Below, one piece after another: positions 4,359 through 51,227 of a stretch of DNA of 64,000 nucleotides (position 1 is its first letter; each line of letters starts with the position of its first letter). Source of the stretch: an uncultured Opitutaceae bacterium (GTDB lineage Bacteria; Verrucomicrobiota; Verrucomicrobiia; Opitutales; UBA2995). The notes under the pieces were generated by a model. The model was not told where the DNA came from. It made no database searches and saw only the letters and a program-made list of their open reading frames with translations. The DNA lies in contig CAYGQM010000019.1 in assembly GCA_964352065.1 (NCBI GenBank), positions 78-64,077 on the forward strand, in the 5' to 3' direction. The translations under genes and the position numbers were made by a program.

Positions 4359-4383
4359 TATCCTAAAACCTTAGATAACAGAT

Positions 4384-5247: not shown

Positions 5248-5304
5248 ATTTCGTAGGATATTACTTTATTTCAAAAATTACGCCAAAACTGTAATTATCC
5301 TTAA

Positions 5305-6549: not shown

Positions 6550-6580
6550 GAACTAGATCTATCAACAGTTTCACATCATT

Positions 6581-6617
6581 AAATAAAGCATAAAATATGA
6601 GCTTTATTTATTTTTAT
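6581..6617. terminator. AT-rich hairpin between the convergent wzt and 6604-8880 genes (possible bidirectional terminator)
   Basis: AAATAAAGC (6581-6589) pairs perfectly with GCTTTATTT (6601-6609) across an 11-nt loop and is followed by ATTTTTAT. The stem overlaps the stop of the minus-strand gene. Confidence 0.45.
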
Positions 6618-8880: not shown

Positions 8881-9014
8881 ATCGCATATTTAATTATTTT
8901 TCGAATCTCTATTAATATAGAAAAAGCTAATTTCCTTTTTCAAAAGATAAACACAAGAATTCATTAACAAACTATTTCATCAACAAATCCCCTAAGTCCA
9001 CCATCAAAGAACAC

Positions 9015-16440: not shown

Positions 16441-16463
16441 GATTCGCAGAAGGATGGTAATAT

Positions 16464-18157: not shown

Positions 18158-18160
18158 AGA

Positions 18161-18775: not shown

Positions 18776-18783
18776 GAGATTAC

Positions 18784-23833: not shown

Positions 23834-23841
23834 GGGAAAAA

Positions 23842-24756: not shown

Positions 24757-24763
24757 TGTGGCA

Positions 24764-27420: not shown

Positions 27421-30400
27421 ATGCCGCTTCTAAAAAGGTTAACCCATATTGCCAGCGAATTCCTCCCGATTAAGACCTATCGGCACGAACTTAAGCAAAC
27501 TCCAGACGGGAAAACGTTTTCAATTGATGGGCCCAGGTGGTTACGTCCTCGCAAAGGGGAATTCCTGCTTCGAGGTTGGTGCTTCAACGAAAAACGAAGT
27601 ATCAAGTCGATCCGTATCAAGACCCGCCAAGGGACTCAGGTCGCACGCTATGGAATCGAAAGGCAAGACCTGCTCGAAGCGTTTAATTCACAGAACGAAA
27701 GAATTCTCTATTCCGGATTCGAAGTGCCGTTAAAAGTCCCACGCGGCTCCACTCCTTTCGAACTGCAGTATCAATACGAGGGGGGAGACTGGGATACCCT
27801 GATTTGCGAAACGTTGATTCGTCCAAGACTGAAAGCCTTCGACCAGGAAAACTCGAATTTAGCAAAAAGTCCCTACGGGAAATGGGTCAAAAAACACGAC
27901 ACCTTATCAAAGAGAGACCACGATGGGATCAGGCAATACATAAAAATCCTTCCGAAAAAACCCCTCATCTCAGTCGTAGTACCCACCTACAACACCTCCG
28001 TAAAACTACTGGATTTGATGGTTAAAAGTATCCGGGATCAGCTCTACGAAAATTGGGAGCTTTGTATCGCTGACGATCATTCAACTTTAAAGAGCACCCG
28101 GAAGCGATTGCAATATTGGGCTCAAAGAGATGAGCGGATCCGGGTGCACTTTCGGGAAACCAACGGTCACATCTCCGAGTGTACCAATAGCGCCATCGAA
28201 ATGGTCCGCGGAGACTACATTGCACTGGTAGATCATGATGACGAAATCCCCGCCCATGCACTCTTCTATGTTGCTCTTGAAATCGTCAGGCACCCGACAG
28301 CTCAAATCATCTACTCCGATGAAGACAAAATAACTCCGGATGGATATCGTCTGGATCCCTATTTCAAACCAGACTTCGGTCCAGATCTCCTCTGTTCTCA
28401 TAACTTCGTCTCCCATCTGGGTGTTTATAAGACAGAACTCATCCGAAAAATTGGGGGGTTTCGAAAAGACTTTGTCGGGTCTCAAGACTGGGACCTGGTA
28501 TTGAGATGCCTGGATCATGTGGAACACAGTGAGATCCGACATATCCCGAGAATACTTTATCATTGGCGCCTCGCTAAAGGATCCACCAGCGCAAGTGTCG
28601 GCAATAAAGATTACGCAGTCACTGCAGGGCGCAGAGCGCTAACGGAGTATCTGGAAAAACATGAACCCACGGGATCTGTCGAAGATGGTCCCACTGCCGG
28701 GTCGTTTAGAATACGCTACTCAACACCAGGAGATCCTCTCGTCTCCATTATCATACTGACAAAGAACAACGCTGAAATCCTGGATCGCTGCGTGGAGTCC
28801 ATCTTGAAAAAGACGGGCTATCGCAATTTCGAGCTTCTGATTGTGGACAATAACAGCGACGAGATTTCCGCTATAGACCTCCTCGCAAATCTTAATAAGA
28901 AACAAGAAATCACCGTATTAGAAAATCTGGTACCCTTCAACTTCTCTGAACTCAACAACTGGGCTGCACAAAAAGCAAAAGGGGAAGTTCTTGTATTCCT
29001 GAATAATGACATGGAGGTCATCGAAGGCGACTGGCTTAAGGAACTCACGAGTCATGCACTCAGAGACGGCGTTGGTCCGGTGGGGACGAAACTTCTATTT
29101 CCCGACGACTATGTTCAGCATGCGGGAATCATCATGGGGATCGCTGGGACTGCGGGGCACGCTTTTAAATTCCTTCATCGACAAAACCCGGGACAAATCG
29201 GTCGAGCTGGTATCATTCAAAACTACTCAGCCGTAACGGCCGCCTGCATGGCGATCCGGTCATCTACCTTTCACTCCCTAGGTGGATTTGATGCCGTCAA
29301 TCTGGGTATCGCCTACAACGATGCGGACTTGTGCCTCAGAGCCTGGGAAAAGGGCTACCGTACTGTCTACACACCCTATGCCCTGCTTTACCATCATGAA
29401 TCCGCTTCAAGAGGATTGGAGAACAGTACCGAGAAGAAGTTAAGGTGGAGAAAGGAAGCAGACTACTTACTCAACAAATGGATGCCAGTAATTCAAAATG
29501 ACCCTTTCTATAACCCGGCACTGACGCTCGTCAAAGAGAACTTCGAGCTAGCAAACCCGCCCCGCTACGAATGTCCCTGGAGATCTTATATCAAGACCGA
29601 CGCTGGACTACTCGACACTCTCTACTTTCAACTACCCTGGACACCCAAAATCAAAGCCGAACTTACTGAGGCTCAGCTATGGCTTCAAGTGAATGAGATC
29701 ACTGTCATATTTGGTGTCATCGCACCCAAGGGCTCTACGATCAATATACGAAAGGACGGACTGGACCTCATTTACCTCGAATACAATGACGTTCCCCCAC
29801 TCTACGAGGGATCCGATAAAGAGACTGCCCTAAACCTCTCCACAACCTTCGACTCAGAACCCAAAGACGCAATCATCACGGTAGAGGTCACGACCGAGGG
29901 ATCCACGAAAACTCACACCCCCTTTCAAATCCGATCCGGGGATATCAGGCCCGACAAATTAAAAAGACCGATCCTTCACAATGTTGACGGCATAATCGCA
30001 CCCCCAGACCTGAGTAACCGAATCGTCATCGGTTGGTGTTTCGCCCTCAATCCCCTCCTGATTCGAGAAATACAGATACGATTGGACGAAACTCCACTCG
30101 TCCTGGAATATCCCCTTAAGAGGGAGGATGTTTCCTCCGTATACACCGATCAGGGTGATGCGCAAAAATGTGGGTTCGAATGCGAACTGCCACCGAATCG
30201 CCACGATGGAACTTTCACCATCGAATGCAAAATCAATTCGGAGTCCTGGATCCAGATCTGCCAGATGAGTCTCAAGTCCTTGAAGGAGATAAAGACCCGG
30301 CCAAACATCAACGCCCTTCCTGAAACACAAACATTCGATACGCAACCTTTGTTCAATGTGGAAACCATTTTCGTTGAACAACAAAAGAAACTAAAAACCA

Positions 30401-32772
30401 GGATAAGAGGTTGGGTTTTCCTCAAAGATGGCCCCGCAATCTCCAAGGTTCGCATGTTGTACCGGGACAAAACCCTCCTTTGCCGCTACGGGATGCAACG
30501 TGAAGACGTCCAACAGGAATTCCCCGACCAATTGACCGCAGCTCAATCCGGCTTCGAATTACAAGTCGAAGATATCCCCGGTAATCCGAATCTGCGTTTT
30601 GAATTCAAAATCGAAGGAGGCGTTTGGCTAGAATTCGATCAACGTAAAGCCGCACAAATCCACAACACATATTACACGGAACGAAAGATACCCTCATCCA
30701 AAAGTGGTGTTCACTCAAATGTTGAAAACGCACAGATAGGAAGACGATACGGCCACCAGTTTATGATGACCGGGTGGTGTTTTCGCATCGATGGAGAACC
30801 CATTAAGGAAATCCGGATCCGAACGGGTAAGAGCAAGTTTCCAGGCAAGATAGGAATTGAGCGGAAAGACGTATTCTCAGAAAACGGATCCACCCATACA
30901 AACAGCCTCGCATCAGGATTCGAGATACCGCTTGATAATATTCCTAGAAATTCGAAGTTAAAATTTGAATACAAGACAGATAACGGAAAGTGGATGTTGT
31001 TCGCCATAGAGGATTTCTCTCGTTTTCCAGTCTCTCACTACGCATCTCAATCCGAGGAAAAACGGAATTTCAATAAATGGCTTGAGGACTACGATCACCT
31101 GATCTCGATCCAGCCAGACCAAGTCGCTTCCTACAAATCTGAATTCAAGAAGAGTCCAAAAATTTCCGTCATCATGCCGGTGTATAATACCCCGGAAATC
31201 TATCTCAGGAAAGCGATTCAGTCAGTGATCGACCAGTACTACGATCATTGGGAGCTTTGTATCGCTGATGACGCCTCAACCCAAGATCACGTATGGAAGA
31301 TCTTAACCGAATTCGCTAGCCAGGACTCTCGAATCAAGATAATGCAGCGAGATACAAACGGCCACATCTGCAGAGCATCCAACTCCGCATTGAGTCTGGC
31401 AACCGGAGAATGGTGTGCGTTTCTAGACCACGATGACGCCTATCCCAAAGATGCCCTGCTTAGGACCGTTATCTACATCAACCGCTTTCCCAATGCCGGC
31501 CTCTTCTACTCCGATGAAGACAAGCTCGACAAAAATGACCGACGTCATGACCCCTACTTCAAGCCGGATTGGAATCCTGAGCTATTAGAGGGCCAGAATT
31601 TCATCTGCCATCTAACCGTCACGAAACTCGCCTTGGTAAATGAAGTCGGCAAGTTTCAACCGGGATTGGAGGGTAGCCAGGACTGGGACCTGTTCCTCAA
31701 AATCACAGAACGTCTCGATCATGATCAGGTGATTCACATGCCATACCTACTCTACCACTGGAGAGCGATTGAAGGCTCCACTGCGTTGGCACTGGATGAG
31801 AAGGGTTACATACGCGAGTCTTCTCTAAATACTCTGAAAGGCCACTGTAAACGCACCAATCCAGATGTAGAGATATTGCCAATCGCCCACGGACATTGGA
31901 GACTCAAGTATCCTGTTCCTGAGACCGAGCCTCTAGTTTCTATCATCATACCGACCAAGGACCAATCTGCGATACTTGGTTCCTGCATCGAAAGTATCAG
32001 GAATCAAACGACTTACCCGAACTACGAAATAATCGTTGTAGACAATAATTCGGTAGAAGACTCTACCACTCAATTGTTCAAAGAACTGAAGACACTCGGC
32101 ATTGAAATATTGAGCTATCCAAACCCGTTTAACTTTTCAGCAATCAACAATTTCGCAGCCAAGCATGCAAACGGCGTTTACCTCGCATTCCTGAACAATG
32201 ACATGTCTATCATCGACGGAGATTGGCTCAACGAAATGATCAGCCATGCATGTAAACCTCATGTAGGTGCGGTCGGCGCCAAACTCTACTATCCGGAAGA
32301 CTGTGTGCAACACGCAGGCGTTATACTCGGAATCAACGGCGTGGCTGGGCACTGTTTCAAATATGCAGCTCGCGGAGAACCGGGCCAACGGAACCGGCTC
32401 AACCTGACCCAACAGTTTTCAGCGATTACAGCCGCATGTTTGGTAGTTGAAAAAGAAATCTTCGAAGAAATTAACGGTTTCGAAGAACAACACCTGGGGG
32501 TCGCATTTAACGATATCGACCTCTGCTTAAGAATTCGTGAAGCCGGTTATGTAAACATCTGGACTCCTCACGCTCAACTTTATCACCACGAATCACTCTC
32601 CCGTGGGGACGACAACGACCAATCTAAAAAAACGCGAGTCGACAATGAAATCGACTACATGCGCAAACGATGGGGCGAACAATTAAGATACGATCCAACC
32701 TACAACCCAAATCTTACATTGGAGTTCGAAGATTTTTCACTGGCCTGGCCACCTCGATTACCGAAAGCATGA
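27421..32772 (+). CDS. 1,783-aa multidomain glycosyltransferase with four GT2 domains (two [GT2-GT2] modules) and four beta-rich accessory domains
   Basis: GT2 starts at 'LISVVVPTYNT' (~27,961), 'LVSIIILTKNN' (~28,738), 'ISVIMPVYNT' (~31,160) and 'LVSIIIPTKDQ' (~31,932). Each is followed by a D.D/DHDD motif. Modules A and B are colinear. Confidence 0.85.
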   Translation: MPLLKRLTHIASEFLPIKTYRHELKQTPDGKTFSIDGPRWLRPRKGEFLLRGWCFNEKRSIKSIRIKTRQGTQVARYGIERQDLLEAFNSQNERILYSGFEVPLKVPRGSTPFELQYQYEGGDWDTLICETLIRPRLKAFDQENSNLAKSPYGKWVKKHDTLSKRDHDGIRQYIKILPKKPLISVVVPTYNTSVKLLDLMVKSIRDQLYENWELCIADDHSTLKSTRKRLQYWAQRDERIRVHFRETNGHISECTNSAIEMVRGDYIALVDHDDEIPAHALFYVALEIVRHPTAQIIYSDEDKITPDGYRLDPYFKPDFGPDLLCSHNFVSHLGVYKTELIRKIGGFRKDFVGSQDWDLVLRCLDHVEHSEIRHIPRILYHWRLAKGSTSASVGNKDYAVTAGRRALTEYLEKHEPTGSVEDGPTAGSFRIRYSTPGDPLVSIIILTKNNAEILDRCVESILKKTGYRNFELLIVDNNSDEISAIDLLANLNKKQEITVLENLVPFNFSELNNWAAQKAKGEVLVFLNNDMEVIEGDWLKELTSHALRDGVGPVGTKLLFPDDYVQHAGIIMGIAGTAGHAFKFLHRQNPGQIGRAGIIQNYSAVTAACMAIRSSTFHSLGGFDAVNLGIAYNDADLCLRAWEKGYRTVYTPYALLYHHESASRGLENSTEKKLRWRKEADYLLNKWMPVIQNDPFYNPALTLVKENFELANPPRYECPWRSYIKTDAGLLDTLYFQLPWTPKIKAELTEAQLWLQVNEITVIFGVIAPKGSTINIRKDGLDLIYLEYNDVPPLYEGSDKETALNLSTTFDSEPKDAIITVEVTTEGSTKTHTPFQIRSGDIRPDKLKRPILHNVDGIIAPPDLSNRIVIGWCFALNPLLIREIQIRLDETPLVLEYPLKREDVSSVYTDQGDAQKCGFECELPPNRHDGTFTIECKINSESWIQICQMSLKSLKEIKTRPNINALPETQTFDTQPLFNVETIFVEQQKKLKTRIRGWVFLKDGPAISKVRMLYRDKTLLCRYGMQREDVQQEFPDQLTAAQSGFELQVEDIPGNPNLRFEFKIEGGVWLEFDQRKAAQIHNTYYTERKIPSSKSGVHSNVENAQIGRRYGHQFMMTGWCFRIDGEPIKEIRIRTGKSKFPGKIGIERKDVFSENGSTHTNSLASGFEIPLDNIPRNSKLKFEYKTDNGKWMLFAIEDFSRFPVSHYASQSEEKRNFNKWLEDYDHLISIQPDQVASYKSEFKKSPKISVIMPVYNTPEIYLRKAIQSVIDQYYDHWELCIADDASTQDHVWKILTEFASQDSRIKIMQRDTNGHICRASNSALSLATGEWCAFLDHDDAYPKDALLRTVIYINRFPNAGLFYSDEDKLDKNDRRHDPYFKPDWNPELLEGQNFICHLTVTKLALVNEVGKFQPGLEGSQDWDLFLKITERLDHDQVIHMPYLLYHWRAIEGSTALALDEKGYIRESSLNTLKGHCKRTNPDVEILPIAHGHWRLKYPVPETEPLVSIIIPTKDQSAILGSCIESIRNQTTYPNYEIIVVDNNSVEDSTTQLFKELKTLGIEILSYPNPFNFSAINNFAAKHANGVYLAFLNNDMSIIDGDWLNEMISHACKPHVGAVGAKLYYPEDCVQHAGVILGINGVAGHCFKYAARGEPGQRNRLNLTQQFSAITAACLVVEKEIFEEINGFEEQHLGVAFNDIDLCLRIREAGYVNIWTPHAQLYHHESLSRGDDNDQSKKTRVDNEIDYMRKRWGEQLRYDPTYNPNLTLEFEDFSLAWPPRLPKA
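29960..31020 (+). repeat. Three tandem copies of a ~110-120-aa accessory domain (a fourth copy at ~27,520-27,830)
   Basis: Recurring pattern 'GW(C/V)F.......I..I(R/Q)I......G.....R.DV......SGFE......P....L.FE.....G.W': IVIGWCFALNP..., TRIRGWVFLKDG..., FMMTGWCFRIDG..., and N-terminal LLRGWCFNEKR.... Confidence 0.8.
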
Positions 32773-34649
32773 AGCCGAGTTTCAGTAGCATCGCAAAAAG
32801 ACCGATCGCGATAGAAGCCCTGTTTGCGTTCATCTGTTTTCTGTTTCTCGTACCCCAACCGTACCTCACCATTCCAGCCCTGGATGCCTCCTGGCAAGTT
32901 ACCCTCGAGGAGGCATTCTTCAAAAACTGGGAGTTTGGGACAACGATCAACTTCACGGGAGGTCCCCTTAGCTTTCTCTATACTCCCACCTCTCTCGGGT
33001 ACTACGTCTTCGGTCAGATCTTTGCTGAGTCACTGGTTATTTTCATTTCTTTGCTCCTGATATTCAGAGGTCTAAGAAATCAATCACTATGGATAAAGAT
33101 TCTCGCAGCCCTGTGCCTTAGCTTGAGTGCAGCAACCGGGAAAGACGGTATTTACCTCATATCGATTTCAGCAGCGAGCCTCACACTCCTAAATGGGAAA
33201 CCTTCCAAGTGGCTCACTTATGCGATTCCATGTTTCCTAACAGTCCTGAGTATGATGAAGTTCAGCTTTGCTACGTTGAGCATCGCTTGTATCACTATTC
33301 TAACCATCGCAGCCATTCTGCAAAAAGAACCCATCAAGGCAGTAAAACTGGTAAGCACCTATCTCGTATCGTTCCTGACCATCTGGATTCTCATTGGACA
33401 AAATCCACTGACTATTCCCGCCTTTTTTACTAATTCTCTCCAGATTTCCCAAGGTTACCTCTGGAATATGAACCTGAGTGAAAACGCGGGGACTTTTTGG
33501 TATCTGATCTCTTTTCTAATAGTATGCAGTCTTCCGATCTTTGGTTTCTGCCTCTTGGAAAGGAAACAGCTAGATGCCTGGATTATACTTTTGATTGCGG
33601 CCGCATCCATTTACCTTGCCTGGAAAGCAGGTATAACCAGAGCAGGTTCACACATGGGGTTTTTCTTACAAGCGACCTTTGTAGTTGTCCTACTGACACA
33701 AACACTGGCGAAGACTTTGTTTGTCCGTAGAATTTGGCTCGGAACGGTTACTATATTTTATTTCGTTGGTCTGACCTTTTTTTATCCCGGAGGCATCAAA
33801 CCCATCGGATCATTTACCTGGAATATTCTTAAGACCAATACAAATTTCCTTCGCAATCCCGATGCCCTCAACCAGACCTTTACCAAAGTAATTCCCATGG
33901 TACTCGCAGAAAACGAGTTACCTCAAATCAAGAAACTGATCGGCGACGCAAGCATTGACCTGCTCCATTTCCAGCAATCAGTTCTATTGCTCAACGATTT
34001 TAATTTTCAACCCCGGCCAACGGTACAGAACTATCCCGCCTACAACGAACACTTGTCTAGGTTGAACCAGGAGCACATCCGGAAAAATCCTCCCGCATAT
34101 ATCTTAGTTCGTTATGCCTTGGTCGACCAAAGGTACCCCTACTCCGACGACACTCTTTACAATCTGGAAGTATTTCAGAACTACCACCCCTTGATGGTAG
34201 AAAAAGGCTACATGCTACTCAAACGGACGGATACTCCAAAACAACTTTCAGAAGGAGAGACCGTTATAGCAACCAGTATTCAGTCAGGAGAAAATGTAGA
34301 TATTTCCCAGTTTTCGGAAAAGCTACTTTGGTTAAAAGTAAACTACCGTCCTTCACTCCTTCACAAAGTCTGCGCATTTCTTTACAAGCCCGAAGTCATT
34401 ATAATACGAGTCACACTTACCGATGGTACGGATAAGAACTTTCGGCTCGTCGGAGGTAACTTGAAAACAGGTTTCTTACTCAACCCGCTTATCGAAGGAG
34501 ACAAGGCACTTGAGGATTTCCTCAATTCACACTCCCCTGTTACGCCGATCACAAGCTTTACCATCGCGAGTATACCGGGAAACACTTTTGGCAGAACCAA
34601 GGAATTTGAATTCGAGCTTATCGAAATAAAGAAAGAGGCGACTCCCTAA
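32769..34649 (+). CDS. Polytopic membrane protein of unknown function (626 aa) with a soluble C-terminal domain
   Basis: ATG 32769 overlaps the TGA of the upstream GT (ATGA, 32769-32772). The N-terminal ~380 aa are hydrophobic spans. The longer start in the ORF track (32670) lies inside the upstream gene. Confidence 0.6.
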   Translation: MKPSFSSIAKRPIAIEALFAFICFLFLVPQPYLTIPALDASWQVTLEEAFFKNWEFGTTINFTGGPLSFLYTPTSLGYYVFGQIFAESLVIFISLLLIFRGLRNQSLWIKILAALCLSLSAATGKDGIYLISISAASLTLLNGKPSKWLTYAIPCFLTVLSMMKFSFATLSIACITILTIAAILQKEPIKAVKLVSTYLVSFLTIWILIGQNPLTIPAFFTNSLQISQGYLWNMNLSENAGTFWYLISFLIVCSLPIFGFCLLERKQLDAWIILLIAAASIYLAWKAGITRAGSHMGFFLQATFVVVLLTQTLAKTLFVRRIWLGTVTIFYFVGLTFFYPGGIKPIGSFTWNILKTNTNFLRNPDALNQTFTKVIPMVLAENELPQIKKLIGDASIDLLHFQQSVLLLNDFNFQPRPTVQNYPAYNEHLSRLNQEHIRKNPPAYILVRYALVDQRYPYSDDTLYNLEVFQNYHPLMVEKGYMLLKRTDTPKQLSEGETVIATSIQSGENVDISQFSEKLLWLKVNYRPSLLHKVCAFLYKPEVIIIRVTLTDGTDKNFRLVGGNLKTGFLLNPLIEGDKALEDFLNSHSPVTPITSFTIASIPGNTFGRTKEFEFELIEIKKEATP

Positions 34650-34660
34650 GGAATCGCCTC
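34635..34660 (-). terminator. Hairpin downstream of the giant gene (possible terminator)
   Basis: GAGGCGA (34635-34641) pairs with TCGCCTC (34654-34660) across a 12-nt loop. On the minus strand it is followed by TCTTTCTTTATTT. It overlaps the 3' end of the convergent plus-strand gene. Confidence 0.4.
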
Positions 34661-34686
34661 TGTAAAATAAGCTCTGTGCCTACGAT

Positions 34687-37600
34687 CTATTCGGAGACTT
34701 CGTATATTTCGACCAGTCCTATTCCCGTGCTACCATTTGCGCCCGACATAATAGCGGTATAAGCACCTGGTTCGAGAGTGATCAAGATTGCAGATTCCTT
34801 GGCATCAGCCGGAGCGAGTAATGAGGCTACCGTTGCAGAATTCGCAGCAGACTGCCAATCATCGTTCTCAGTGATCTTATTACCCCCTGCGAATAGCTCA
34901 AGTTTGGAATCGCCAAGAGCGCCTGAAACGCCGGCAGCCCCTAGACTTGGACCAATCGCACGAATTAGCACTTCTTTAGGACGGCTGCCAGTAACTACGA
35001 ACCCTCCAATAGTTCTCTGATCCCCACTGCCAACCAGCGCACGGGTAGAGATGTTGATCAAGCGACTGGATACGCCCCCTGAATTTTCATCTTCGACATA
35101 ATAGACCTCTACGAGTCCGATGCCCGTTCTACCTTCCGAGTCCCGGACATGTACGGTGTAAGCTCCCGGCAACAGGTCCGCCACAAGCACCGCCTCATTC
35201 GGATCGATTGGAGCCAATCCAAACTGAGCAACCAGCGCTGGTGATGTTCCATTGATCCAGGATGCATTCGAACCAACAACGATTCCATCTTTAACCAGCA
35301 GAAGATCGGGATTAGGAACGACATCAGCCGGATCTAAACCACCTTGAACCAGGGAATTTCCCAACGCGCGAATTAGAACTCTGGATGACTGAAGTCCATC
35401 ACCTTTCACCACAAAACCGGCGATCATCGTCTCCTGATCAACTCCGACCCATCCACGGGTTGAAACGTTAACCAACTCAACTTCATCAATCGGTGTAAGG
35501 TTGATGTTCAATACGATTTCACCTTCATCTCCCTCAACACCGTCTACCGCTATATGATAGGTTCTTCCCGGAATGGCGAGGAACTCAAGCCGGCTGTAAC
35601 TTACAGAAGCTCCGGCATCGTCATTGCCCCCAATTTCATTCAAAGCCATAAGTCCGGCACCTCGGTAAACGCCAATTGATGTATCGAACGTGCTACCCAT
35701 GGTATCAATAACAACCATACCCTTGACCGCTGGCGACCAGGACCACCACGATGATTTTCCACCCGAGACACCTCCATGAACGGGCTCCCCATCTTGAACC
35801 GTGCCGTTGTAGTTATTTCCATTCGCGATCACGGAATTCTCATTACCAAGATCAAATGAATCTTCAAAATCATCATTCTCAGGACTGAGTCCCAGCTGGA
35901 TAAAGATGATGCCTCCCGCGACTTCATTATCCACAACAGCTCCATCTACAGCGATACGATAGGTAGTTCCTGCGATGGCTTCAAACGCCAAGCTGGTCGG
36001 GTCCTCGCGTTGCGGATCTTCGATCGGCGTTACGGAGATCAACGACGTGACCAACGGGCCAACATAAGCACCTACTAGTGTAGCAATCGTGCTTTCATCC
36101 GTCGTTATACGAACAATTCCGTTCCCCGGTGCGGTCCAACACCACCATACGGATTTTCCACCGGGAGAGTTTGCATGCATCGGTTCGCCACTCTCACGGG
36201 TAGCAAATTGGTTTGACGCAGAACTTGTATCGGTAAATCCGTTCAATTCTCCACAATCAGCGAAGTTGTCTCCTCCAGAACTTCCTACAGCTGAGAAACT
36301 GAGAAATACCTTCCCTTGGTCCGGTTCCAAAGTTACCGCATCGACCGCAATATAATACACCGTTCCAGCCAAGACTTGGAATACCACCTGACTCGTCAGA
36401 TCCGGACTCGTGTGGTTATTGCTAGAACCATTTGCTACCGGAATAAGTGAGCCCATCGAGCTTCCTTCATAAACTGCAAGTACTGTGTCAAAATCACTTC
36501 CTGCAGTATCCAATATCGCGATACCATTGATTTCAGGACTTAACCGCCACCAAACAGAATGATTCGGAGCAACACCAGCATGAAATGGTTCGGCCAGTTC
36601 GGCATCCGCGTTATTCACGAAACTGGTAAACGTTCCTTTGCTACCGGTTATCGGAATTGCGTTCGTGAAATCATTATTCGTAGCTCCCAGAACCAGGTTC
36701 AGGTTAATAGACCCTGCTTCCGTGATTCCTGAAACAGGATCAAAAACACCATCCACAGCTATATGGTAAGTCGTTCCAGCCAGGACGCCAAACGCAACCG
36801 CGCTGGTATTAATACCGGGCAATACATCATCATTGCTGCTCACTTCTGTAAGGGTGCTTACAGAATTTCCTTCATAGACACCCAGCAATGTATTGATAGA
36901 ACTTCCTGCCGTGTCTAAAAAGAGTGTTCCATTAGCGGGGGCAGTCCAGGTAAACCAAAGCGACTTACCACCGGCATTGCCTGCATGCTGTGGCTCTCCA
37001 GGTTCTTGGAAAGCTTCAGAGTTATTTACCGTAATCGAGGCAGCATTACCGATGAGGATATCGCCACCGCTAAAGCTTCCCACTACTCGTTGGCGCTCCA
37101 GCACAAGACTCAATTCGATAGTTCCAACAAAGTCTGTTTCTTCTCCTGCAAGTTGATCGTCGCTTCCATCAACGAGGATGTAGTATACTGCACCATTCGC
37201 CGCATTGAAGCTTACAGCCCCCGTTTTTTCATTATTGGGTCCGTCGTCTTCCCCTGCGATGAGGGCTAACGTGTCCAAAGAAGTGCCTGCGTAAATCGCG
37301 ATTATCGTATCAAAATCGGAACCTGCCGTAGAGACTGAAACACGTCCATCTTTAGGAGAAGTCCACTTCCACCATACAGAGCGTCCGGCGGACTCTTCCA
37401 GATGGTTCGGCTCTCCTTCTTCAATCGATGTCTCAAAGTTGTGGGACGTAACCGAGAACTCTGGACCCGAAACCTCAATTGCGCCCGCGAAGTCATCATT
37501 TGATGGACTTTTCAAACGCAGCTGGATACCTCCGGTGGCTCCGTCTTTACCGTCCACTGCGATTTGGTATTCTGTGCCCTGCACTGCATCAAATAAAACT

Positions 37601-40600
37601 GCACTACCGACGTTCCCCGGAGCGAGGTCGTCATTTTCTGCAATCAAGTTAAGACCACTGATGCTCTGCCCCGTGTAGACAGCTAACAGGGTGTCAATCG
37701 CACTGTCTCTGGTAGTAATACTCACTGGACCCGTTTGTGGGGCCACCCAGCTCCACCAAACGGAACTACCTCCCGGTTCTCCCCCATGATTGGGTTCACC
37801 CGTTTCTTTATCGGCCCCTTCATTGCTTCCAAAAATTACCCCTGGATCATACCCCACTATTGTTGAAGGGCTGCTAATCAGGTTGTTCGTTTCAATCAAA
37901 ACGAAGTTGAAAAATATAGTTCCCTCATCTGCCTCCGCGCCCGAGGATTTACCGTCTACAGCGAAGTAATAGGTTTCACCTGCTGAGGCTAGAAAACTGA
38001 TCTGGCTCGCCCCGTCAGGACTGGAGTAGTTATCATTTTCAGTTACCAAAGTGAGCGTGCTGACAAAGTCTCCGGTATACGCAGCGAGCACGGTATCAAG
38101 AGGATCACCATTCGCATTGGCGCTTCCTGCCGTGTCTACTGACACAAGGACATCCGTCTGGGCTTCCCACTTCCACCAGATAGAAGATCCACCAGCATTT
38201 CCGCCGTGACTTGGTTCACCCGCTTCCTTGCTGGCATTGAAGTTGAATGCACTAAAGCTGAAAGATCCACTCCCTACGGGTGCCGCTCTTTCAAATGCAT
38301 CATTAGCGGGTAGCAAGCTGAGATTAAGCTCAACATCTCCAGCAGCCGTATTGCCAGTAACCGGATTGAAGCTTCCATCAATCGCGATGAAATAAGTAGT
38401 TCCTTCGGTTGCAATAAACTGCACGCTACTTGAGGTGTCACTACCAGAGGCGTCGTTGTTGCTAACGATCTCTATCAACTCACCTAATTCGGTTCCGGAA
38501 TAGACTGCCAGGAGTGAGTCGAAGGTGGATCCCGAAGTATCAATTAAAGCCAGTCCGGTCGCGGGAGCAGTCCATTCAAACCAAATCGACTTCCCGCCGG
38601 AATTTCGTGCATGCAATGGTTCAGTAGGTTCCTGAGTTGCTGTCGCATTGGTCGTGGTGATATTGAAGCCGTATCCGAAGATACCAACCGCATCTTCAAA
38701 TTTATCGGCTGGCTCAAACTCTCCACCCCCTGTGGTAGCGTTCGTGAAAGAAAGACTCAAAGCAACATTACCGGTAGCATTCTGGATATCACTACCTGCA
38801 ACGCCATCCACCATGATGAAATAAGTGACTCCACTTTCCACCAATACGGTGAGTGAACTTCCCAAGTCTTCAATACTGGCATTGTCATTAAAACCAACCA
38901 GAGTCAGATCATCTACGCTGCTTCCGAAAGCAATTGCCAGGATCGTATCGAAATCGCTTTCCAGAGTATTAATTCTCAGCTGTCCCTGTGCGGGAGCCGT
39001 CCATTGCCACCAGACGGAGCGACCGAATGTGTTGAATTCCTGAAATCCTTCGCCAAGTTCTGACGACGCGGCGTAATTATTTGCCGCCACATCACCCTCA
39101 ATACCCGGTATATCTTGAGCAAGTGAGAAATTGTCGTTCGCCGGTGCTTCGGTAAACCCGTAGTTCAACAACGCAGTTCCACGTTCACCTTCTCCGCTTT
39201 CGTTAAGTCCATCAACGGCAATCTTATAGCTGGTACCACCAAATACTGGAGTGCTGATAAACGAAACGACCTTACCAGGCTCGGCATTATCATTCGATGC
39301 TACCTCAGTCAGGCTATTGACTGTATCTCCTGTGTAGACAGCCAACAAGGTATCAAAGTCCGAAGCGGATGTATCCAAATCGATGCGACCATCTGCAGGA
39401 GCAATCCACTCCCACCAAATGGATCTATCACCAATATTCTCGGCGTGAACGGGCTCCCCAACCTCATGAGTTGCAAAATCAGTTACGCCTGACGTCGTGC
39501 CCGAGTCATCAGTGAGAAGAATGCGATCTATGAAATCATCATTTTCAGAAATCATAAACAGGCTAAGAACGATATCACCAAAGGCACCGTCTTTACCATC
39601 AACCGCGAGCTTGTACGACTGACCCGCTTCAGCGAGAATAACCACTCGGCTGGAGGTTATAACGCCTCCAAGGTCGTCATTGGCGGTGACATTTGAAAGT
39701 CCCGCGATAGTGTCTCCGGTGTAAACAGACAACAGCGTGTCTATCTCACTACCAGCTGTATCAATCACAACCATACCTTCTGCCGGTGCGAGATAGTCAT
39801 ACCATACAGAACTACCGCCTGCGTTGCTCGCATGATTACTTTCCCCCGCTTCCTTACCCGCGTTGTTGGTATAACTTTCAATCAGAAACGATCCTCCCGT
39901 AAGCAGCGTAGCATCTGAGAAGAAATCATTGAATGGAGAAAGACTCAATGAGAGCTGTATATTGCCCGTTGCAATCGTATTACCAACGAAATCATATTTA
40001 CCATCCACAGCTATAAAATACTTTTGACCTTCATTCACAGACAGCACGACCTGACTGGTTCCGTCTGGAGCAAACGCCGCAAAATCATCATTGGAAGCCA
40101 ACGCCAACAAGTTGGAAAGGCTAGTTCCCCGGTAGACTCCAAGAAGGGTATCAAAATCGCTGCCATCCGTTGATACGGTCAAATTTCCGCTATTCGGTGC
40201 GATCCATTCGAACCACACTGATCGACCGCCAGAGTTGCTGGCATGCAGGGGTTCGCCCGGCTCCTTAAAGGCATTCTCATTACTTTGGAAGGCTTCAGAA
40301 TTAAAGCCCGACATATCAATCGCACCATCAAAAGTTCCTACGATCGCTGCTTGCACGAGTTCCAGTTCCAATTCGAACTGGGTAGGTAATCCACGTATGG
40401 CAAAAAAGTATTCTTGATTCTCACCGACAGGGAGAGATACTGTTTTATTAACACCAATCGCCAACTGTCCGTTTTCGAAGTCGACAAAGTTATCTCCGAC
40501 ATAGGCTGCTACACTCAGGTCTTCAGTCAGAGAAACCGCTGAAATGTTCAAGATACCATCTGAAGGTGCTGTCCAACGATACCAGACAGAACCACCGGCG

Positions 40601-43600
40601 ACTGCATCTTCTGTCGTTGAATGAGACGGCTCACCAGCCTCCATATCTGCGTTAAAGGTTGTGTGAATGATTCCTTCGTTTACGCCGGTGAGTTCCCAAG
40701 CATTCTCCAGATCGTTATTAGCAGGCATGGACACACTGACCCTTAGCAATCCTGAGGCTCCATTTTTTCCATCAACAGCTACACGGTACCGTTCGCCAGC
40801 AACTGCTTCAAAGACAATTTTTCCGTAGAGATTTCCATCAAAGTCATCGCTAGAGCCCACCAGATTCAACTGCGCAAGCGCGTCTCCTGTATAGACAGCA
40901 AGTAGGGAATCAACAAGACTACCTTCCGTGCTGATTTCTACGGGACCCGTCGATGGAGAAACCCATGACCACCAAAGCGACTTTCCGCCGGCTACTCCTC
41001 CGTGAACGGGTTCTCCCACTTGAAGATCAGCAGCGCCGTTGTTTCCTTCGTCCTGATCAACAAACCCTGATAGGATAAAGGATTGTTGGAAATCGTTATT
41101 GTTGGTCCGTGTAGTTAGGGATAGTGTAATTTGCCCCTCAAGAGCACCAAAACCGGCATTGTAGCCATCTATAGCTATAAAGTATTCAGTTCCAGCTGTT
41201 CCAGTAAAAGCCACCTGAGATGCCAAATCTGGACTTGTGTAATTATCATTCGAATCCACTTCCACAAGGGAGCCTAAGCTATTCCCCGTATATACCCCAA
41301 GAAGCGTATCAAAATCACTTCCAGAAGTGTCGATAATCACCTGACCATTCGAAGGCGCGGTCCAACGCCACCATGAGGACCTACCCCCGATATTTCCAGC
41401 GTGGTCCGGTTCACCTAACTCTTCAGTTGCATTCAAGTTAAAGCCGCCAACGCTCAATGAAGTGCCGGCAATTACACTGGCATTTTCGAAAAGATCATTC
41501 TGTGGCAAAAGATTTAATTGCAGGTATATATCTCCCTCAGTCGTTGTGGATCCATCAAATTCACCGTCCACTGCAATCCAGTAAGTAGTCCCACCGATTG
41601 CTAAGAAATTAACTTCACTGGTCTCACCAGGTCCACTATCATTGTCACTCGCTACTTCCTGGAGGCTAGTGATCTCGTCGCCAACATAAACTGCCAGTAT
41701 CGTATCAAAATAACTGTCTGGAAAAGCGATAGGATCGAAGTCATCCCAATAGGTCTTTAAATTGACCAATCCATCTGCTGGTGCAGTCCATTTCCACCAC
41801 GCAGATTTACCAGCTGCGTTCCCACCATGTTGGGGCTCAAGTGGCTCCTGAGTTGCGTTGTAATTATCTCCCTGTGCGGTAATCGTATAGAGATCATCCG
41901 CATCGTCACCAAGATCCTCAGCATTACTGAAATTATCATTATACTCCTGAATGATCTTTAAAGTGATATTACCTTCTGAAGGCACGGCACCTATGGGGCC
42001 ATCCACCGCGATACGGTATACGATTCCACGCTGCGCTACGAATCGAACAGCACTATCAGAAGTATACAAGACGATGGGTTGGCCTGTCTGTGGATCCGTT
42101 TCAATTCCTGTAACATTGTCCCCAACGAGAGTAGGCTCCAGGGAGTTTAATTGCCCACCCGTGTAAACCGCGATAACTGGCTTCCAGTTGATTTCGTCAA
42201 GAACAGTCGTCGCAGTCGTTGAGATAGAAACCGTTCCAGTCGTAGGAGCTTCCCAAGACCACCAGATCGACTTACCCACACTCGCAAGCGCGTGATTAGG
42301 CTCTCCGCCTTCTCGACCTGCGGTGACGTTACTGGAATCTTCCTCATGTGCGAGGGATTTGAGAAATTGACTCGAGTCGTTGGTATAAGAAAAGAGGTCA
42401 TTGAAGGTCTCAAAAGACAGATCGAATTTGTAATCACCAAAGTCTCCACCCGCACCGTCCAAGGCGATTGAAAAAATATCTCCTTTGTCAACCGACAAAC
42501 GGATTTCGCTGGTGTCAACGGTTCCGTCTTTGTTGTCATTGCCCGCTACTTGAGTCAGATTCGTAAGGCTCGGCCCACGGTAAACGCCCAGAAGGGTATC
42601 AAAGTTACTGCCATCGGTAGAAAGGATAACGTCACCAACCGCCACAGAAGTCCAAGAGAACCAAACTGATTTTCCTCCTACTACACCCGCATGGTCGGGT
42701 TCAGCGCCTTCGAAAGTCGCAGCGGCGGTATTTCCTACAACCGTTGCTGCAAATCCTCCAAGGAAACGACGGTCGTCGAAGAAGTCATTATCCACGGGCG
42801 TGGGTTGGCTCAAATCATACTGAGTTACAAAGCCGGCGGATAACCCCGGATCGATGTTGATCGTATTCCCAATGGTATCTTCTCCACGAAGATATTGAAC
42901 ATCCGATGGGCTAGCTGTGGCGTCAACCGTCGTGAAGAAATCCGTGGAGTTTGTGTAGCCGGTTACAAATACGCGGCTCGGATCAAAAGTGCTATTAATT
43001 GCCACCTTATTGCCTTCGTCATCACTGAATCCACCGAGGTAGGTACTAAAATCGAGCGAAGATCCATCCACACTAAAGTTGGCGATAAAAACATCTTTGC
43101 TGCCGTTTGCAACAATATCGAATGCATTGCTTGATACAGGAAAATCTTCCGAGGCTGTAAAACCGGTTACGACTGCTTCATCATCAGCATTAATCACAAT
43201 GGATTGTAAAACATCATCCGCTTCTCCACCCAGATAGGTGCTAAATACCATCTGATCATTGTTATCAAGCTGGGTGGGATCCAACTTAAACAACCATCCA
43301 TTCAATCCACCTTCGTATTTAGTCTGCAAAGCATCATTAGAAGTTGGAAAATCAGTCGAAGAGGTAGATCCACCGATATAAAGCAACCCAGCAGAATCAA
43401 TTGCGATATCATAACCGACATCATCGGCGTCGAACTGACTACCTCCAGGCGTAGGTGTAAATCCGTCTTCACCCACTCCCTGCTCACCGTCGCCACCTTC
43501 ACCAAGTCCGCGAGGTCCGCCACCCAACCAGGTAGCATAGGTCAAAGCATCCAGACGCGCGATTTGCCCTGCCAGTAACACCGCAGTGTAATTCGCACGG

Positions 43601-46266: not shown

Positions 46267-49236
46267 TCAATTCAGGGTATAAATCTCTACAGAACCAATA
46301 CCAGCATCGCCGCCTGCTGACCTCAGATGAAGTGTGTATACACCAGGTTCAAGGTCCAACAACATAGCAGATTCAGTATCCATCGGTGCGAAAAGCGTAG
46401 CCTCGATCTCGTCCCAATTGATTGCATCAAACCAGTTATCATTCGAATAAATCACTACGCCTGAGCTGTTGAATAAGAGCAATTCCGGATCTGCCAACGA
46501 AGGACTTCCCGGAACAATCAGCGAAGGACCCATACCACGAAACAGCAGCTGTTTTGATTCACTACCACCAATGATTAAGCCTCCGATCAAAATTTCCGCA
46601 CCGGATGAAACTCGTCCACGGGTCGAGATGTTGACGAGATCCCCATCTAGGCCAGCCGATGCATCTACATACAGTTCAATTGCGCCGATACCCGTCCCCC
46701 CATTTCCAGAAACGATCGCCGAGTAAGTCCCTGCTGGCAGAGTCGTGATAATTGCGCTTTCACTGGTATTGAGACCGGTTAGACCCGTATCAATAATCGC
46801 CTGGATCTGCGACGTGTCATCAATCCAATTATCGTTTTCCTCGACCACCATTTGGGTTGTATTGTCTATTATCTGCAATGAAGGATTCGGTAATACGTTT
46901 TCAACTCCAACAAGAGATGGCCCAACCGCACGTATGAGAACCTTTTGAGGTCCGTTAAAGATGATAAAGCCTCCGATAAGAACCTCATCATTCAGGCCCA
47001 CATATCCCCGAGTCGATAGATTAACCAATTCACCGGTTTCGCGATCGTCATCATAAATGAGTGCCTCGCCATTTGAGAGATCCCCGATCCGGGCGTTGTT
47101 ACTGGGTTCACTTAATGAAAGACTTACCCGTTCACTCTGTTCGGGAATAGAATCATTGAGTATAACAAGATTAAACAGTTTGGGCGACAAATCACCAGCT
47201 TCCCAAAAAAGTGCAGTGTCGAGTATGACATAATCGGAGCCAGCCACTGCATTCGAGTCTGCCGAGGAGACTCTAACCGAGGCTTCACCAACGCCATCAC
47301 CAAATCGATCAACCTGAATCAGAATCTCTTCACTTCCTTCAGTACCGGAATAAAGGATACGATCAAATTCAAACCAGGTACCCGGCTGTTCCTCATCGTC
47401 CGTTATTGTGATGGTATGGACACTATTTGCTCCAGCAACCGAACCGCTATCGACATCAGAAAGATAGACCGTAAAAACTTCCGGACCTTCAAACAATTCG
47501 TCGTTGAGAAGTCCTATAGAAATCTCTTTGGCAGAAGAGTCTCCATCCGCCCAGTTTAATACACCCACCTGACTAATGAAATCCAAAGACGCCATCGCCG
47601 AACCGGCGTTGGTTTCATAAGCGACAGAAACCGCACCGGTGGATCCTCCCAAACGTTGAATACTCACTGACACAGCGCTACTGTCCTCTGAAACTGTTTG
47701 AGACGATTCCGCAAAAACGACCGTCCCGGAATCATTGAGATCGTCATCCTCGATGATCACGCTAACAATAAAGTTATCATTGAAGAGTCCACCCGTTGAA
47801 GAATCCAAGGAGATAAAAAACGCTTCGTCTGACTCGAAGGCAGCATCGTCAATAATCGGAACCAAGATCGTCTTATCTGCGCCGTCACCGTCTTCCCAAG
47901 ACAAAGAACCATCTATGCCCGTAAAATCCGCACCCGCATTCGCAGTAGAATCGGAAAATGAATAATCGACATCAATCTTCCCGAAGGTGCCTCCGGTTCT
48001 TGAGACTACGATACCAGCCGTTCCCGATGACTCCTCAACCGACAGAAGTTCACTGGCAAACCCTATCGTTCCCACTTCCGATGTTGCGTTGTCATCATCC
48101 TGAATTGTAACCGTAACCGTCGAAACAATAAGGACCGCATCTCCCGTGCCAAGAGTAAGCTCCACCTCAAAGCTTTTATCGACTTCATCGACCTGATCAT
48201 CAGCTACAGAAATGCTAATCGACCGCGAGGTATTGGATCCGTTTATCCAGTTCAAAGTCCCGCTGGCGCTCGTAAAATCGATACCATCCAGTGCAGTGCC
48301 GCCCCGGGTTGCATACTGCACCGAAACCGCGCCCTGATTGCCCCCGGTTCTTTCCACAACCAAATCGACTTGCTCTTCAGATTCCGCAACTTGAATTTCT
48401 GAAACAGACCAGCCAATATTTCCCGCAGAAGATTCGTCGTCCTCAATGATTACCCTGACCTGCGAGGTAGATCCGAGTTCAGCAGAATCTGGATCAGAAA
48501 GAAGTATCGTAAACTCCTCATCAGGCTCAGAGATAAAATCGTCATTCAAACTGATGAAGACGCTTTTCTGAATATCCCCAACGCCAAAGGTCAATGCTCC
48601 GCTTTTCGATTGGAAATCGGTAACTGCCAAAGCCGTTACTCCCGACGTTTCATAATTGACAGTCGCAGATGAATTGATGCCCCCGCTTCGGGTCGCGACG
48701 ACTTCCACCATTGCCTCGTCCTCAGCGACGCGTACCACCCCTTGGGCCCACTGAATAAATGCAGTCTCGTCGTCGAGAATCGTTATTTGAAGATCTTTTC
48801 GACTCCCAATGGTAACACCCGTTCCCGGATTGAATAATTGCAATAGAAACGTCTCATCACCCTCTTCTAGAGCATCCTGACTAATTCTGACACTGATCTG
48901 AAGCTCCTCTTTCCCTGAAGTGAACAAAGCCTGGCGACTGGATATCGCCTGATAATCAAATCCCGAGGTTGCTGATACCTCTACAGATCGGTAGAAGACC
49001 CTCGCAAGGCCGCTCAAATTGCCGCTACGGATCAGCGTTACATCGACTGTTCCAGCAGACTCATCGTAAGAAACTGCCGCTTCGCTCCATTGAATTTCAG
49101 CATTCTGAGCAAAGGCAGAAATTGCTGAAATGAAGAGGGCAGGAACAATCCACTGGAATCGTCCTAGATTTTTAATTAGTAGTTTCAAGGCTACGAAGCT
49201 TCGGCCCAAACCTGTTTGAAGTGAGTAGCGAAGCAA
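46267..49236 (-). CDS. Secreted protein with six Calx-beta domains and the twin C-terminal module (989 aa)
   Basis: Six units of the type 'V.Y.T..GTA..G.DF....G.L.W..GD...K.I.I.I.DD...E.DE.F.V.L'. Signal-like 'WIVPALFISAISAFAQN'. The only start offered is TTG at 49236, with no in-frame ATG before the signal peptide, so the start is uncertain. Confidence 0.85.
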   Translation of the reverse strand: MLRYSLQTGLGRSFVALKLLIKNLGRFQWIVPALFISAISAFAQNAEIQWSEAAVSYDESAGTVDVTLIRSGNLSGLARVFYRSVEVSATSGFDYQAISSRQALFTSGKEELQISVRISQDALEEGDETFLLQLFNPGTGVTIGSRKDLQITILDDETAFIQWAQGVVRVAEDEAMVEVVATRSGGINSSATVNYETSGVTALAVTDFQSKSGALTFGVGDIQKSVFISLNDDFISEPDEEFTILLSDPDSAELGSTSQVRVIIEDDESSAGNIGWSVSEIQVAESEEQVDLVVERTGGNQGAVSVQYATRGGTALDGIDFTSASGTLNWINGSNTSRSISISVADDQVDEVDKSFEVELTLGTGDAVLIVSTVTVTIQDDDNATSEVGTIGFASELLSVEESSGTAGIVVSRTGGTFGKIDVDYSFSDSTANAGADFTGIDGSLSWEDGDGADKTILVPIIDDAAFESDEAFFISLDSSTGGLFNDNFIVSVIIEDDDLNDSGTVVFAESSQTVSEDSSAVSVSIQRLGGSTGAVSVAYETNAGSAMASLDFISQVGVLNWADGDSSAKEISIGLLNDELFEGPEVFTVYLSDVDSGSVAGANSVHTITITDDEEQPGTWFEFDRILYSGTEGSEEILIQVDRFGDGVGEASVRVSSADSNAVAGSDYVILDTALFWEAGDLSPKLFNLVILNDSIPEQSERVSLSLSEPSNNARIGDLSNGEALIYDDDRETGELVNLSTRGYVGLNDEVLIGGFIIFNGPQKVLIRAVGPSLVGVENVLPNPSLQIIDNTTQMVVEENDNWIDDTSQIQAIIDTGLTGLNTSESAIITTLPAGTYSAIVSGNGGTGIGAIELYVDASAGLDGDLVNISTRGRVSSGAEILIGGLIIGGSESKQLLFRGMGPSLIVPGSPSLADPELLLFNSSGVVIYSNDNWFDAINWDEIEATLFAPMDTESAMLLDLEPGVYTLHLRSAGGDAGIGSVEIYTLN
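46270..47028 (-). repeat. Twin C-terminal module (2 x ~125 aa), paralogous to 34690-35475
   Basis: 'LVNLSTRGYVGLNDEVLIGGFIIFNGPQKVLIRAVGPSL...LPAGTYSAIVS...GIGAIELYV' and 'LVNISTRGRVSSGAEILIGGLIIGG...LLFRGMGPSL...LEPGVYTLHLR...GIGSVEIYTL'. Confidence 0.9.
47040..49100 (-). repeat. Six tandem Calx-beta domains (~115 aa each)
   Basis: Unit boundaries are marked by acidic ends 'ILDDE', 'IEDDE', 'IQDDD', 'IEDDD', 'ITDDE', 'IYDDD'. Coordinates are approximate. Confidence 0.8.
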
Positions 49237-51075: not shown

Positions 51076-51227
51076 ATTTAGTACCTTTCGATTATAGAGG
51101 TTTAGGTTATGTTCTAACGATAGTGAGGTAATTGGTGAGACAAGGCCAATTTTTAAGCGATTACAAGCGCCATTTAGGGGGTTTCGACTTGTTCAGAGCC
51201 AAAAAATCCAGAAAAGTCGTGAAATTA

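Follow-up and report, generated by a model that had tools for sequence, protein, structure and literature searches.

The collagenase ColG of Hathewaya (Clostridium) histolytica ends in two collagen-binding domains, s3a and s3b (5iku, 1nqj), which act together as a bivalent tether, and these domains, with s3 of ColH (3jqw), are the closest analogue, in form and in likely action, of the element described here. This element, the twin module, is a pair of ~125-amino-acid (aa) modules that ends the products of two neighbouring genes in a stretch of 64,000 nucleotides from an uncultured marine Opitutaceae bacterium of the phylum Verrucomicrobiota (contig CAYGQM010000019.1, positions 78 to 64,077 of the forward strand, assembly GCA_964352065.1; hereafter the window). 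As in ColG, a pair of beta-jelly-rolls of ~115–125 aa each, here predicted ones, stands at the extreme C-terminus of secreted multidomain proteins. We suggest, with moderate confidence, that the twin module is a bivalent, non-covalent unit which tethers exported passenger proteins, most likely to the envelope of the cell that produces them. Its proposed role would be that of dockerin for cellulosomal enzymes, or of s3a-s3b for the ColG collagenase.

Other described C-terminal units bear on this suggestion. The type I dockerin (PF00404) occupies the same extreme C-terminal slot as the twin, on homologous passengers and in the same lineage. Dockerins are non-covalent anchoring modules and not secretion signals; an internal duplication gives them two binding faces, and their partner, at least in cellulosomes, is cohesin. 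Their fold and sequence are unrelated to those of the twin, a dockerin being ~60 aa long and EF-hand-like. The sorting domain of the type IX secretion system (T9SS; TIGR04183 / Por_Secre_tail) resembles the twin in being a folded C-terminal beta-sandwich that is found on many Sec-exported paralogues with diverse passengers and is mutually exclusive with other tails, but it is a single ~80-aa Ig-like unit and not a 2 × 125-aa jelly-roll pair, and the twin also exists in N-terminal and internal positions. The phylum in which T9SS is known to operate is another than that of our host, the Verrucomicrobiota. The pre-peptidase C-terminal domain (PPC, PF04151) is likewise a C-terminal beta-jelly-roll of secreted bacterial proteins and gives a weak profile match over the motif PGxYT...G; PPC has ~70 aa, whereas the module has ~125 aa, is paired, and has an NxSTRG strand at its N-terminus and an NDxW loop that PPC lacks. 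Among catalogued sequence families NF038127 of NCBIfam (FDP_fam) comes closest; its model describes a 150-position unit and not the twin.

The two genes of the window and the four copies of the module were located as follows, with scores from a hidden Markov model (HMM) built from the four copies:

34687–45837 (−), gene of a giant secreted protein of 3,716 aa, from the list of open reading frames (ORFs)
35080–35481 (−), module A of the giant protein (aa 3453–3586), full-length match of 192.9 bits, and alignment
34690–35067 (−), module B of the giant protein (aa 3591–3716), 186.2 bits, and translation
46267–49236 (−), gene of a secreted protein of 989 aa with six Calx-beta domains followed by the twin module, from the ORF list
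46645–47034 (−), module A of the Calx-beta protein (aa 735–864), 177.8 bits
46270–46644 (−), module B of the Calx-beta protein (aa 865–989), 186.3 bits, the copy that was modelled singly with AlphaFold2

The tails of the two proteins are 42% identical over 267 columns (BLASTP, E=2e-46), and the four ~125-aa copies show 38–40% pairwise identity with 27 invariant columns; the same HMM detected no fifth copy in a six-frame translation of the window. An initial reading of the DNA made from the sequence alone (hereafter the sequence-only reading) had proposed that one module, fitting one consensus, occurs twice at the end of each protein and that the proteins are otherwise unrelated. Translations, BLASTP and the four-copy HMM agree with the first part of this proposal, and the domain content agrees with the second, since DUF7948, SBBP and PPC-like repeats in the giant protein face six Calx-beta domains in its neighbour (Pfam Calx-beta, E=5.2e-96, 6 stretches). 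The giant protein is laid out as a signal peptide, DUF7948, SBBP beta-propeller repeats, 19 PPC-like repeats and the twin module, directly followed by the stop codon; its Pfam matches are DUF7948 (E=2.7e-65), SBBP, PPC and GBD_T9SS_assoc.

Both proteins end 2–3 residues past the last strand of the second module, the giant protein after three (...VEIYEVSE-stop; ...GIGLVEIYEVSE-stop) and the Calx-beta protein with ...GIGSVEIYTLN-stop. Neither translated C-terminus has the PEP motif, hydrophobic helix and basic cluster of a PEP-CTERM tail, and the T9SS sorting-domain model TIGR04183 reached 12.1 bits (E=0.14) on the Calx-beta tail only, against a cutoff of 23, so that the absence of a PEP-CTERM, LPXTG or T9SS-type tail noted at the outset is upheld. 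By the tests that define each of these, the module is not a T9SS C-terminal domain, a PEP-CTERM tail or a member of Pfam PPC. At the other end of the two proteins the following signals were found:

45748–45837 (−), Sec-type signal peptide of the giant protein (MFKLIPVPMTKKLLTVLTLGFLFSSVWSQA before the inferred cleavage site and ES after it), read from the translation
49108–49236 (−), N-terminal region of the Calx-beta protein with a probable Sec-type signal peptide (...FQWIVPALFISAISAFA before the cleavage site and QNA after it), as judged from the translation

The true start codon of the Calx-beta protein is uncertain. No lipobox cysteine was found in the translated signal peptides of either protein, and as these are of the cleavable kind and no other tail is present, the twin is the only candidate anchor.

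Architecture was surveyed in two samples: the 150 best-scoring representatives of the family, and 77 loci from genome assemblies, all of Chthoniobacterales (Verrucomicrobiota) and including Udaeobacter, which together held 150 module-bearing ORFs. Two copies were present in 108 of the representatives, four in 28, three in 11 (several of these being N-terminally truncated fragments), six in 2, arranged as three separate pairs, and five in 1, while exactly two were present in 130 of the 150 locus ORFs. The last module lay no more than 5 residues from the C-terminus in 138/150 representatives and 139/150 locus ORFs, and no PEP-CTERM-like or other recognisable sorting tail followed the twin in either set. 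In ~5% of the representatives the pair was N-terminal or internal (among them P0203, P0241, P0245, P0265 and P0150), and the multi-copy proteins P0145 and P0152 contained extra internal pairs. The exceptional architectures include a signal peptide followed by the twin and DUF1800, the twin followed by He_PIG or by a beta-helix, reprolysin followed by the twin and a further 331 aa, and modules followed by PKD domains. Whether the module is always C-terminal and always paired, as the sequence-only reading had asked, can therefore be answered with mostly: pairs, and multiples of them with four or six copies, predominate, and proteins with three or five copies, or with the pair elsewhere than at the end, do occur. 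The two copies within one protein are on average 66% alike, compared with 55–57% for copies across proteins. Distinct A and B subtypes, as in a heterodimer-like pair, were considered and rejected, as no position-specific columns were found.

Across the family the N-termini look like Sec signal peptides and linkers are often rich in proline and threonine; the module is not scattered over random positions in cytoplasmic proteins. Passengers are extremely varied, with 66 Pfam families across 55 full-length relatives and none of these families common to more than 12 proteins. They include InlB B-repeats, FN3, Big_3_5, Calx-beta, RCC1 and kelch propellers, PMP repeats and Ig-like stalks; enzymes such as GH44 and, without relation to carbohydrates, S8 and M12 peptidases, beta-lactamase-fold proteins, cyclophilin and, in locus L001, a PQQ dehydrogenase; and the NCBI 'choice-of-anchor' families Q, U, GloVer and NxxGxxAF. 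These last families and the non-carbohydrate enzymes count in favour of the tether.

In the same loci we searched for proteins which are homologous to twin-bearing passengers and lack the twin. Three of them end, at the extreme C-terminus, in Pfam Dockerin_1 (23.0–36.7 bits, cutoff 22.9), with passengers 37–47% identical to the twin-bearing ones:

L043, 5378–7720 (+), dockerin protein, counterpart of a twin-bearing protein of L068
L027, 866–3142 (−), dockerin protein, counterpart of a twin-bearing protein of L073
L024, 4388–6034 (+), NHL propeller with dockerin, counterpart of an NHL propeller with twin in L065

Since dockerin anchors non-covalently, its presence in the same slot speaks for tethering. 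As an observation in its own right, type I dockerins here stand at the C-terminus of secreted proteins of Verrucomicrobiota, which are non-cellulosomal organisms, and these proteins are paralogous to twin-module proteins.

Conservation points the same way. The Calx-beta protein has an orthologue, P0513, on a related Opitutales contig; between the two, identity is 78% in copy A and 82% in copy B of the twin and 55% in the passenger. A tail that is constrained more than the exposed part of the protein fits contact with a conserved component.

Prediction of the module's structure, a check proposed in the sequence-only reading, gave a confident beta-jelly-roll of the PPC / collagen-binding-domain class. 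The AlphaFold2 model of the twin, a compact pair, had a pLDDT of 90.1 and a pTM of 0.83, and that of the single module (Calx-beta copy B) a pLDDT of 91.6; the module is predicted to be an eight-stranded beta-sandwich (beta-jelly-roll) with a short helical excursion. In Foldseek searches the top matches of the single module were the C-terminal domain of Tk-SP (3afg, E=3e-5; 9ues, E=2-3e-5); among the best were also the PPC domain of Bacillus anthracis collagenase (5sv5, E=6.4e-5, TM-score 0.69) and the collagen-binding domains of ColG and ColH (TM-score 0.51–0.69; 0.69 for 1nqj), and the matches also included the claudin-binding C-terminal domain of C. perfringens enterotoxin. The twin model found the ColG tandem s3a-s3b as its top match (5iku, E=1e-5), at a TM-score of 0.29 for the pair. 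No T9SS C-terminal domain was among the 50 structural matches listed. Judged from these predicted structures, the module is most similar, among PDB entries, to jelly-rolls that stand C-terminally and serve in binding or stabilisation. No domain of established and unrelated function was matched, the nearest folds, those of PPC and of collagen-binding domains, being C-terminal and binding or secretion-associated. The module is predicted to be a PPC- or collagen-binding-domain-like jelly-roll, and it is used as an obligate pair and terminal tag.

We propose the following course of events. Each ~125-aa module is predicted to form a jelly-roll of eight beta-strands that belongs to the PPC / collagen-binding-domain class. 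Two copies, nearly equivalent to each other, are fused head to tail at the very end of Sec-exported proteins. After export, the pair would bind a conserved polymer or protein of the producer's envelope, for which lipopolysaccharide (LPS), capsule, exopolysaccharide (EPS) or an outer-membrane protein are candidates. Two binding sites could give avidity, and the passenger, in the present case the 3,716-aa repeat stalk or the Calx-beta adhesin, would thereby be held on the cell surface. The sequence-only reading had supposed a shared terminal unit for sorting, anchoring or glycan binding. The common job of this unit on unrelated surface proteins is borne out by its pairs at the C-terminus, Sec export, exchange with dockerin and conservation; as to which job it is, the exceptions in position and the proteins with four or six copies favour binding or anchoring, and the sequence-only reading is supported in part.

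Several observations weigh against the tether. The likeness to PPC and collagen-binding domains is structural only, with 7–12% identity in the structural alignments. With the ColG domains in particular, the module shares no HMM-level relation and the two domains of the pair are oriented differently, as the low score of the pair indicates; its carriers are environmental Verrucomicrobiota, for which collagen is an unlikely target, and it is attached to hundreds of passenger types and not to one enzyme. PF04151 scores 15.5 bits (E=0.033) on the tail of the giant protein, against a gathering score of 25.9, and has no match in the Calx-beta tail. An hhalign comparison of the module with the PPC-like repeats of the giant protein itself gave a probability of 2% over 9 aligned columns, which also rules out the twin as two further copies of these repeats. 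The link of the module to PPC is thus at the level of fold, with no demonstrable sequence family. The rule that the pair ends within 5 residues of the terminus is tighter than is usual for carbohydrate-binding or adhesion modules and more like that of sorting domains. Our census is biased towards the best 150 representatives and towards one verrucomicrobial order. Glycan genes were found near the twin in only 3 of the 77 Chthoniobacterales loci by a crude BLAST with the glycan genes of the window and of locus L002, and a general linkage of the twin to glycan or exosortase loci is accordingly rejected. Finally, we know of no proof of the function of dockerin-like modules outside cellulosomes.

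The positional rule also supports an alternative, unlikely in our judgement, in which the twin is a C-terminal sorting or secretion tag that is read in the periplasm by an outer-membrane translocon or processing enzyme. Such a tag would direct export and perhaps covalent attachment and might then be removed; in Verrucomicrobiota it would correspond to what the T9SS C-terminal domain or PEP-CTERM/exosortase is elsewhere. Besides the termini of the 138/150 representatives and 139/150 ORFs, this explanation agrees with the many paralogues per genome, often in tandem arrays (two or more genes in 35 of the 77 loci), as is common for sorting domains, with the great diversity of passengers, including 'choice-of-anchor' families, with the occurrence of the twin unaccompanied by a PEP-CTERM-like or other recognisable sorting tail, and with the better conservation of twin than of passenger; the PPC domain, moreover, is described by Pfam as removed from secreted peptidases. 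However, real N-terminal and internal pairs exist (the five proteins named above), and these favour binding or anchoring because a change of position is tolerated by binding modules but not by terminal sorting signals. The multiplication of pairs to four or six copies, some of them internal as in P0145 and P0152, again favours a binder, as extra copies add avidity and do nothing for a signal. Further to that, the twin swaps with dockerin, a binding module rather than a signal; its 250 aa greatly exceed the size of known tags; and T9SS C-terminal domains are absent from the 50 structural matches.

The neighbourhood of the twin genes likewise offers no partner for a tag. In the Chthoniobacterales loci there was no conserved neighbouring secretion or processing gene, neither a processing enzyme nor a translocon, and the recurrent neighbours were an extracytoplasmic function (ECF) sigma factor (PF07638, ~213 aa), present in 18 loci with a median distance of 69 bp to the twin gene (e.g. 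L035, 13777–14427 (−)), and a TPR-containing Ser/Thr kinase (~860 aa), present in 20 loci with a median distance of 522 bp (e.g. L010, 2580–5165 (−)). These two genes may constitute a regulatory cassette for twin gene arrays. No T9SS genes were found among the genes of the 64-kb window.

Equally unlikely, in our view, is that the twin is a substrate- or host-targeting module comparable to a carbohydrate-binding module (CBM) or collagen-binding domain, which would concentrate secreted enzymes and adhesins not on the producer but on a polymer outside it, for instance polysaccharide of plants or algae, protein fibres or mineral-organic matter. The evidence from the fold serves this explanation as well as it serves the tether: collagen, claudin or sugars are the ligands of the nearest structures. 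Glycoside hydrolases and proteases (GH44, S8, M12) are among the passengers, and on insoluble substrates a tandem arrangement provides avidity, as it does in ColG. But many passengers are not polymer degraders (cyclophilin, PQQ dehydrogenase, kelch and RCC1 propellers, Calx-beta, Ig-like stalks), the adhesin-like giants would be left with no link to the cell at all, and no cell-anchoring tail accompanied the twin in the proteins surveyed, though such tails are common with CBM, PKD and PPC modules. That a single conserved module serves so varied a set of passengers suggests that its ligand is constant, and external targeting also fits poorly with a twin that is better conserved than its passenger. 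That the module is a passive stabilising or folding Ca2+-binding jelly-roll without a targeting role, as has been described for the Tk-SP C-terminal domain and for some PPC domains, would agree with the top structural match (the beta-jelly-roll of 3afg/9ues, E ~2e-5) and with conserved acidic or amide positions (N and D in NDxW, two E) that could bind Ca2+, but is very improbable, as a stabiliser is not expected to occur on 66 Pfam families in 55 proteins, to be constantly paired, to exchange with dockerin or to surpass in conservation the very domains that it would stabilise.

A more far-reaching reading, which we consider quite unlikely, is that the twin serves as recognition element in an undescribed Verrucomicrobiota-wide system of surface display, in which a dedicated partner would capture every protein that ends in the pair, under the control, in soil Chthoniobacterales, of the adjacent pairs of ECF sigma factor and Ser/Thr kinase as a switch. 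The partner would be an outer-membrane receptor, a translocon or a specific envelope glycan. If true, this would be a fourth general way for a diderm cell to decorate its surface, beside T9SS C-terminal domains, PEP-CTERM/exosortase and GlyGly-CTERM/rhombosortase.

The family is large, with at least 18,437 clusters at 50% identity at E<=1e-3 and 9,183 at E<=1e-30. No Pfam-A model covers the module, and neither a profile of the twin nor one of the single module matched any PDB chain at E<0.1. NF038127 (DVUA0089 family) is the only curated model that recognises the twin family at all. It scores 18.9 and 25.0 bits on the two tails of the window, under its cutoff of 29, and 40.2 bits, over two stretches, on the twin protein of L002; 8 of 55 representatives match it at E<=0.001 (best E=1.7e-13) and 47 do not. 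By sequence, the copies of the window are outlying relatives of NF038127 and not members by the curated rule. DVUA0089 is among the targets of a sigma-54 regulator assigned to exopolysaccharide/biofilm synthesis in Desulfovibrio vulgaris (PMC4641369). We found no published description of the module in the literature on DVUA0089, choice-of-anchor or pre-peptidase C-terminal domains in Verrucomicrobia.

A stand-alone, twin-only protein of ~237 aa, as it appears in public data, was rejected after two loci had been read: such entries are truncated gene calls that begin at the internal Met of 'VMIGGF', where Pro/Thr-rich linkers or frameshifts break the upstream ORF (L001, 5536–6705; L002, 5299–6714). 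Our homologue search appears to list matches only up to ~1.75 times the length of the query (238 aa for a query of 136 aa; 735 for 420), and this bound and the truncated calls together hide true architectures. In a search with the DUF7948 N-terminus, P0382 alone, among the matches listed, ends in a hydrophobic, IPTL-CTERM-like tail.

Verrucomicrobiota, including soil Chthoniobacterales/Udaeobacter and marine Opitutales, are abundant and poorly cultured, and the module may reveal how they attach proteins to their surface. Its main interest lies there and in the size of the family, its clean architecture rule and its absence from Pfam. In practical terms, a new domain family can be defined by a clear rule (pairs, terminus), and the twin, which marks at least 18,000 protein clusters without a Pfam model, provides a sequence handle for predicting the surface-attached or secreted proteome. 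If tethering is true, the module points to a conserved envelope ligand and would offer a portable two-domain tag for surface display.

The pair of genes in the window is not an isolated arrangement. Two to four twin genes lie side by side in 35 of the 77 Chthoniobacterales loci, like those of the window, and the arrays reach four consecutive same-strand genes with differing passengers (L011, L021, L023, L050, L065, L079 and others). Three or four separate loci come from each of several metagenome-assembled genomes, and the number of twin paralogues per genome may therefore be well above ten. The MurJ protein of the window places the host in the class Opitutia; it is 76% identical to that of 'Opitutia bacterium ISCC 51', other named matches being Opitutales, and 92% identical to that of a related Opitutales contig (L080). 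In the latter the order cupin, GT2, Calx-beta, giant is kept, the genes of the Calx-beta protein (971 aa) and of the giant protein (3,707 aa) lying next to each other in the order that they have in the window (L080, 17098–21566 (+)); the pair is therefore stable and does not stem from a recent local duplication of the tail.

Both twin genes of the window lie inside a ~50-kb island for glycan biosynthesis, sulfation and export, which contains many GT2/GT4 glycosyltransferases, among them a 1,783-aa protein with four GT2 domains, as well as methyltransferases, a CMP-sugar synthase, the genes cysD, cysN and cysC for 3'-phosphoadenosine 5'-phosphosulfate (PAPS) and two Wzm/Wzt exporters. In L002, L052 and L061 (the last two by BLAST) a twin gene adjoins genes for Wza, exosortase EpsH and UDP-glucose dehydrogenase, and placement of the twin gene in an exosortase EPS locus may thus recur. 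The island and these placements count in favour of the tether. The protein of the first of these loci is:

L002, 5299–6714 (+), twin protein of 471 aa with FN3, a Pro/Thr linker and the twin

Its neighbours (6731–9770) encode Wza (Poly_export), exosortase EpsH, UDP-glucose dehydrogenase and a 1,068-aa TPR protein.

Two further features belong to the giant gene and its 3' side:

35533–43113 (−), 19 PPC-like repeats (aa 909–3435), the stalk of the giant protein, from an iterated HMM search within the protein
34634–34661 (−), terminator-like hairpin with a 12-bp stem followed by a T-run, 26 nt past the stop codon of the giant gene, from a consensus scan and as a pattern match only

The repeats, which account for the larger part of the giant protein, have a period of ~134 aa and gave 19 matches of ~80 aa each (E=1e-10 to 1e-37). 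Pfam barely detects them (PPC, 43.7 bits summed, with no single stretch passing), and ~55 aa of each unit are without annotation. Three ORFs of the window have no Pfam match, namely 6604–8880 (−, 758 aa), 32670–34649 (+, 659 aa) and 58819–59994 (−, 391 aa), and the first two have no NCBIfam match either. The ORF of 659 aa runs towards the 3' end of the giant gene, and it shares ~100 nt with the end of the gene for the 1,783-aa glycosyltransferase.

Elsewhere in the island, the PAPS genes (cysN-like GTPase, cysD, APS kinase; 22562–25378 (−)) adjoin the gene of the four-GT2 protein (27421–32772 (+)), and together they suggest, by their predicted functions, that a sulfated polysaccharide is made at this locus; no sulfotransferase was recognised. 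The two ABC-2 exporter pairs of the Wzm/Wzt type lie at 3519–6549 (+) and 51132–52783 (+), and a glycan-binding domain, Wzt_C, is present in the Wzt of the first pair. L080 appears to lack the second pair, as no ABC-transporter family was found there among the called genes between cupin and SBF. The first 20 kb of the window holds glycosyltransferases, Wzm/Wzt, an FkbM-type methyltransferase and the CMP-sugar synthase. Positions 1–20000 have a G+C content of 36–41%, compared with 46–49% in positions 20001–64000, and the first 20 kb look like a laterally acquired or hypervariable glycan cassette beside the part of the island that has core composition.

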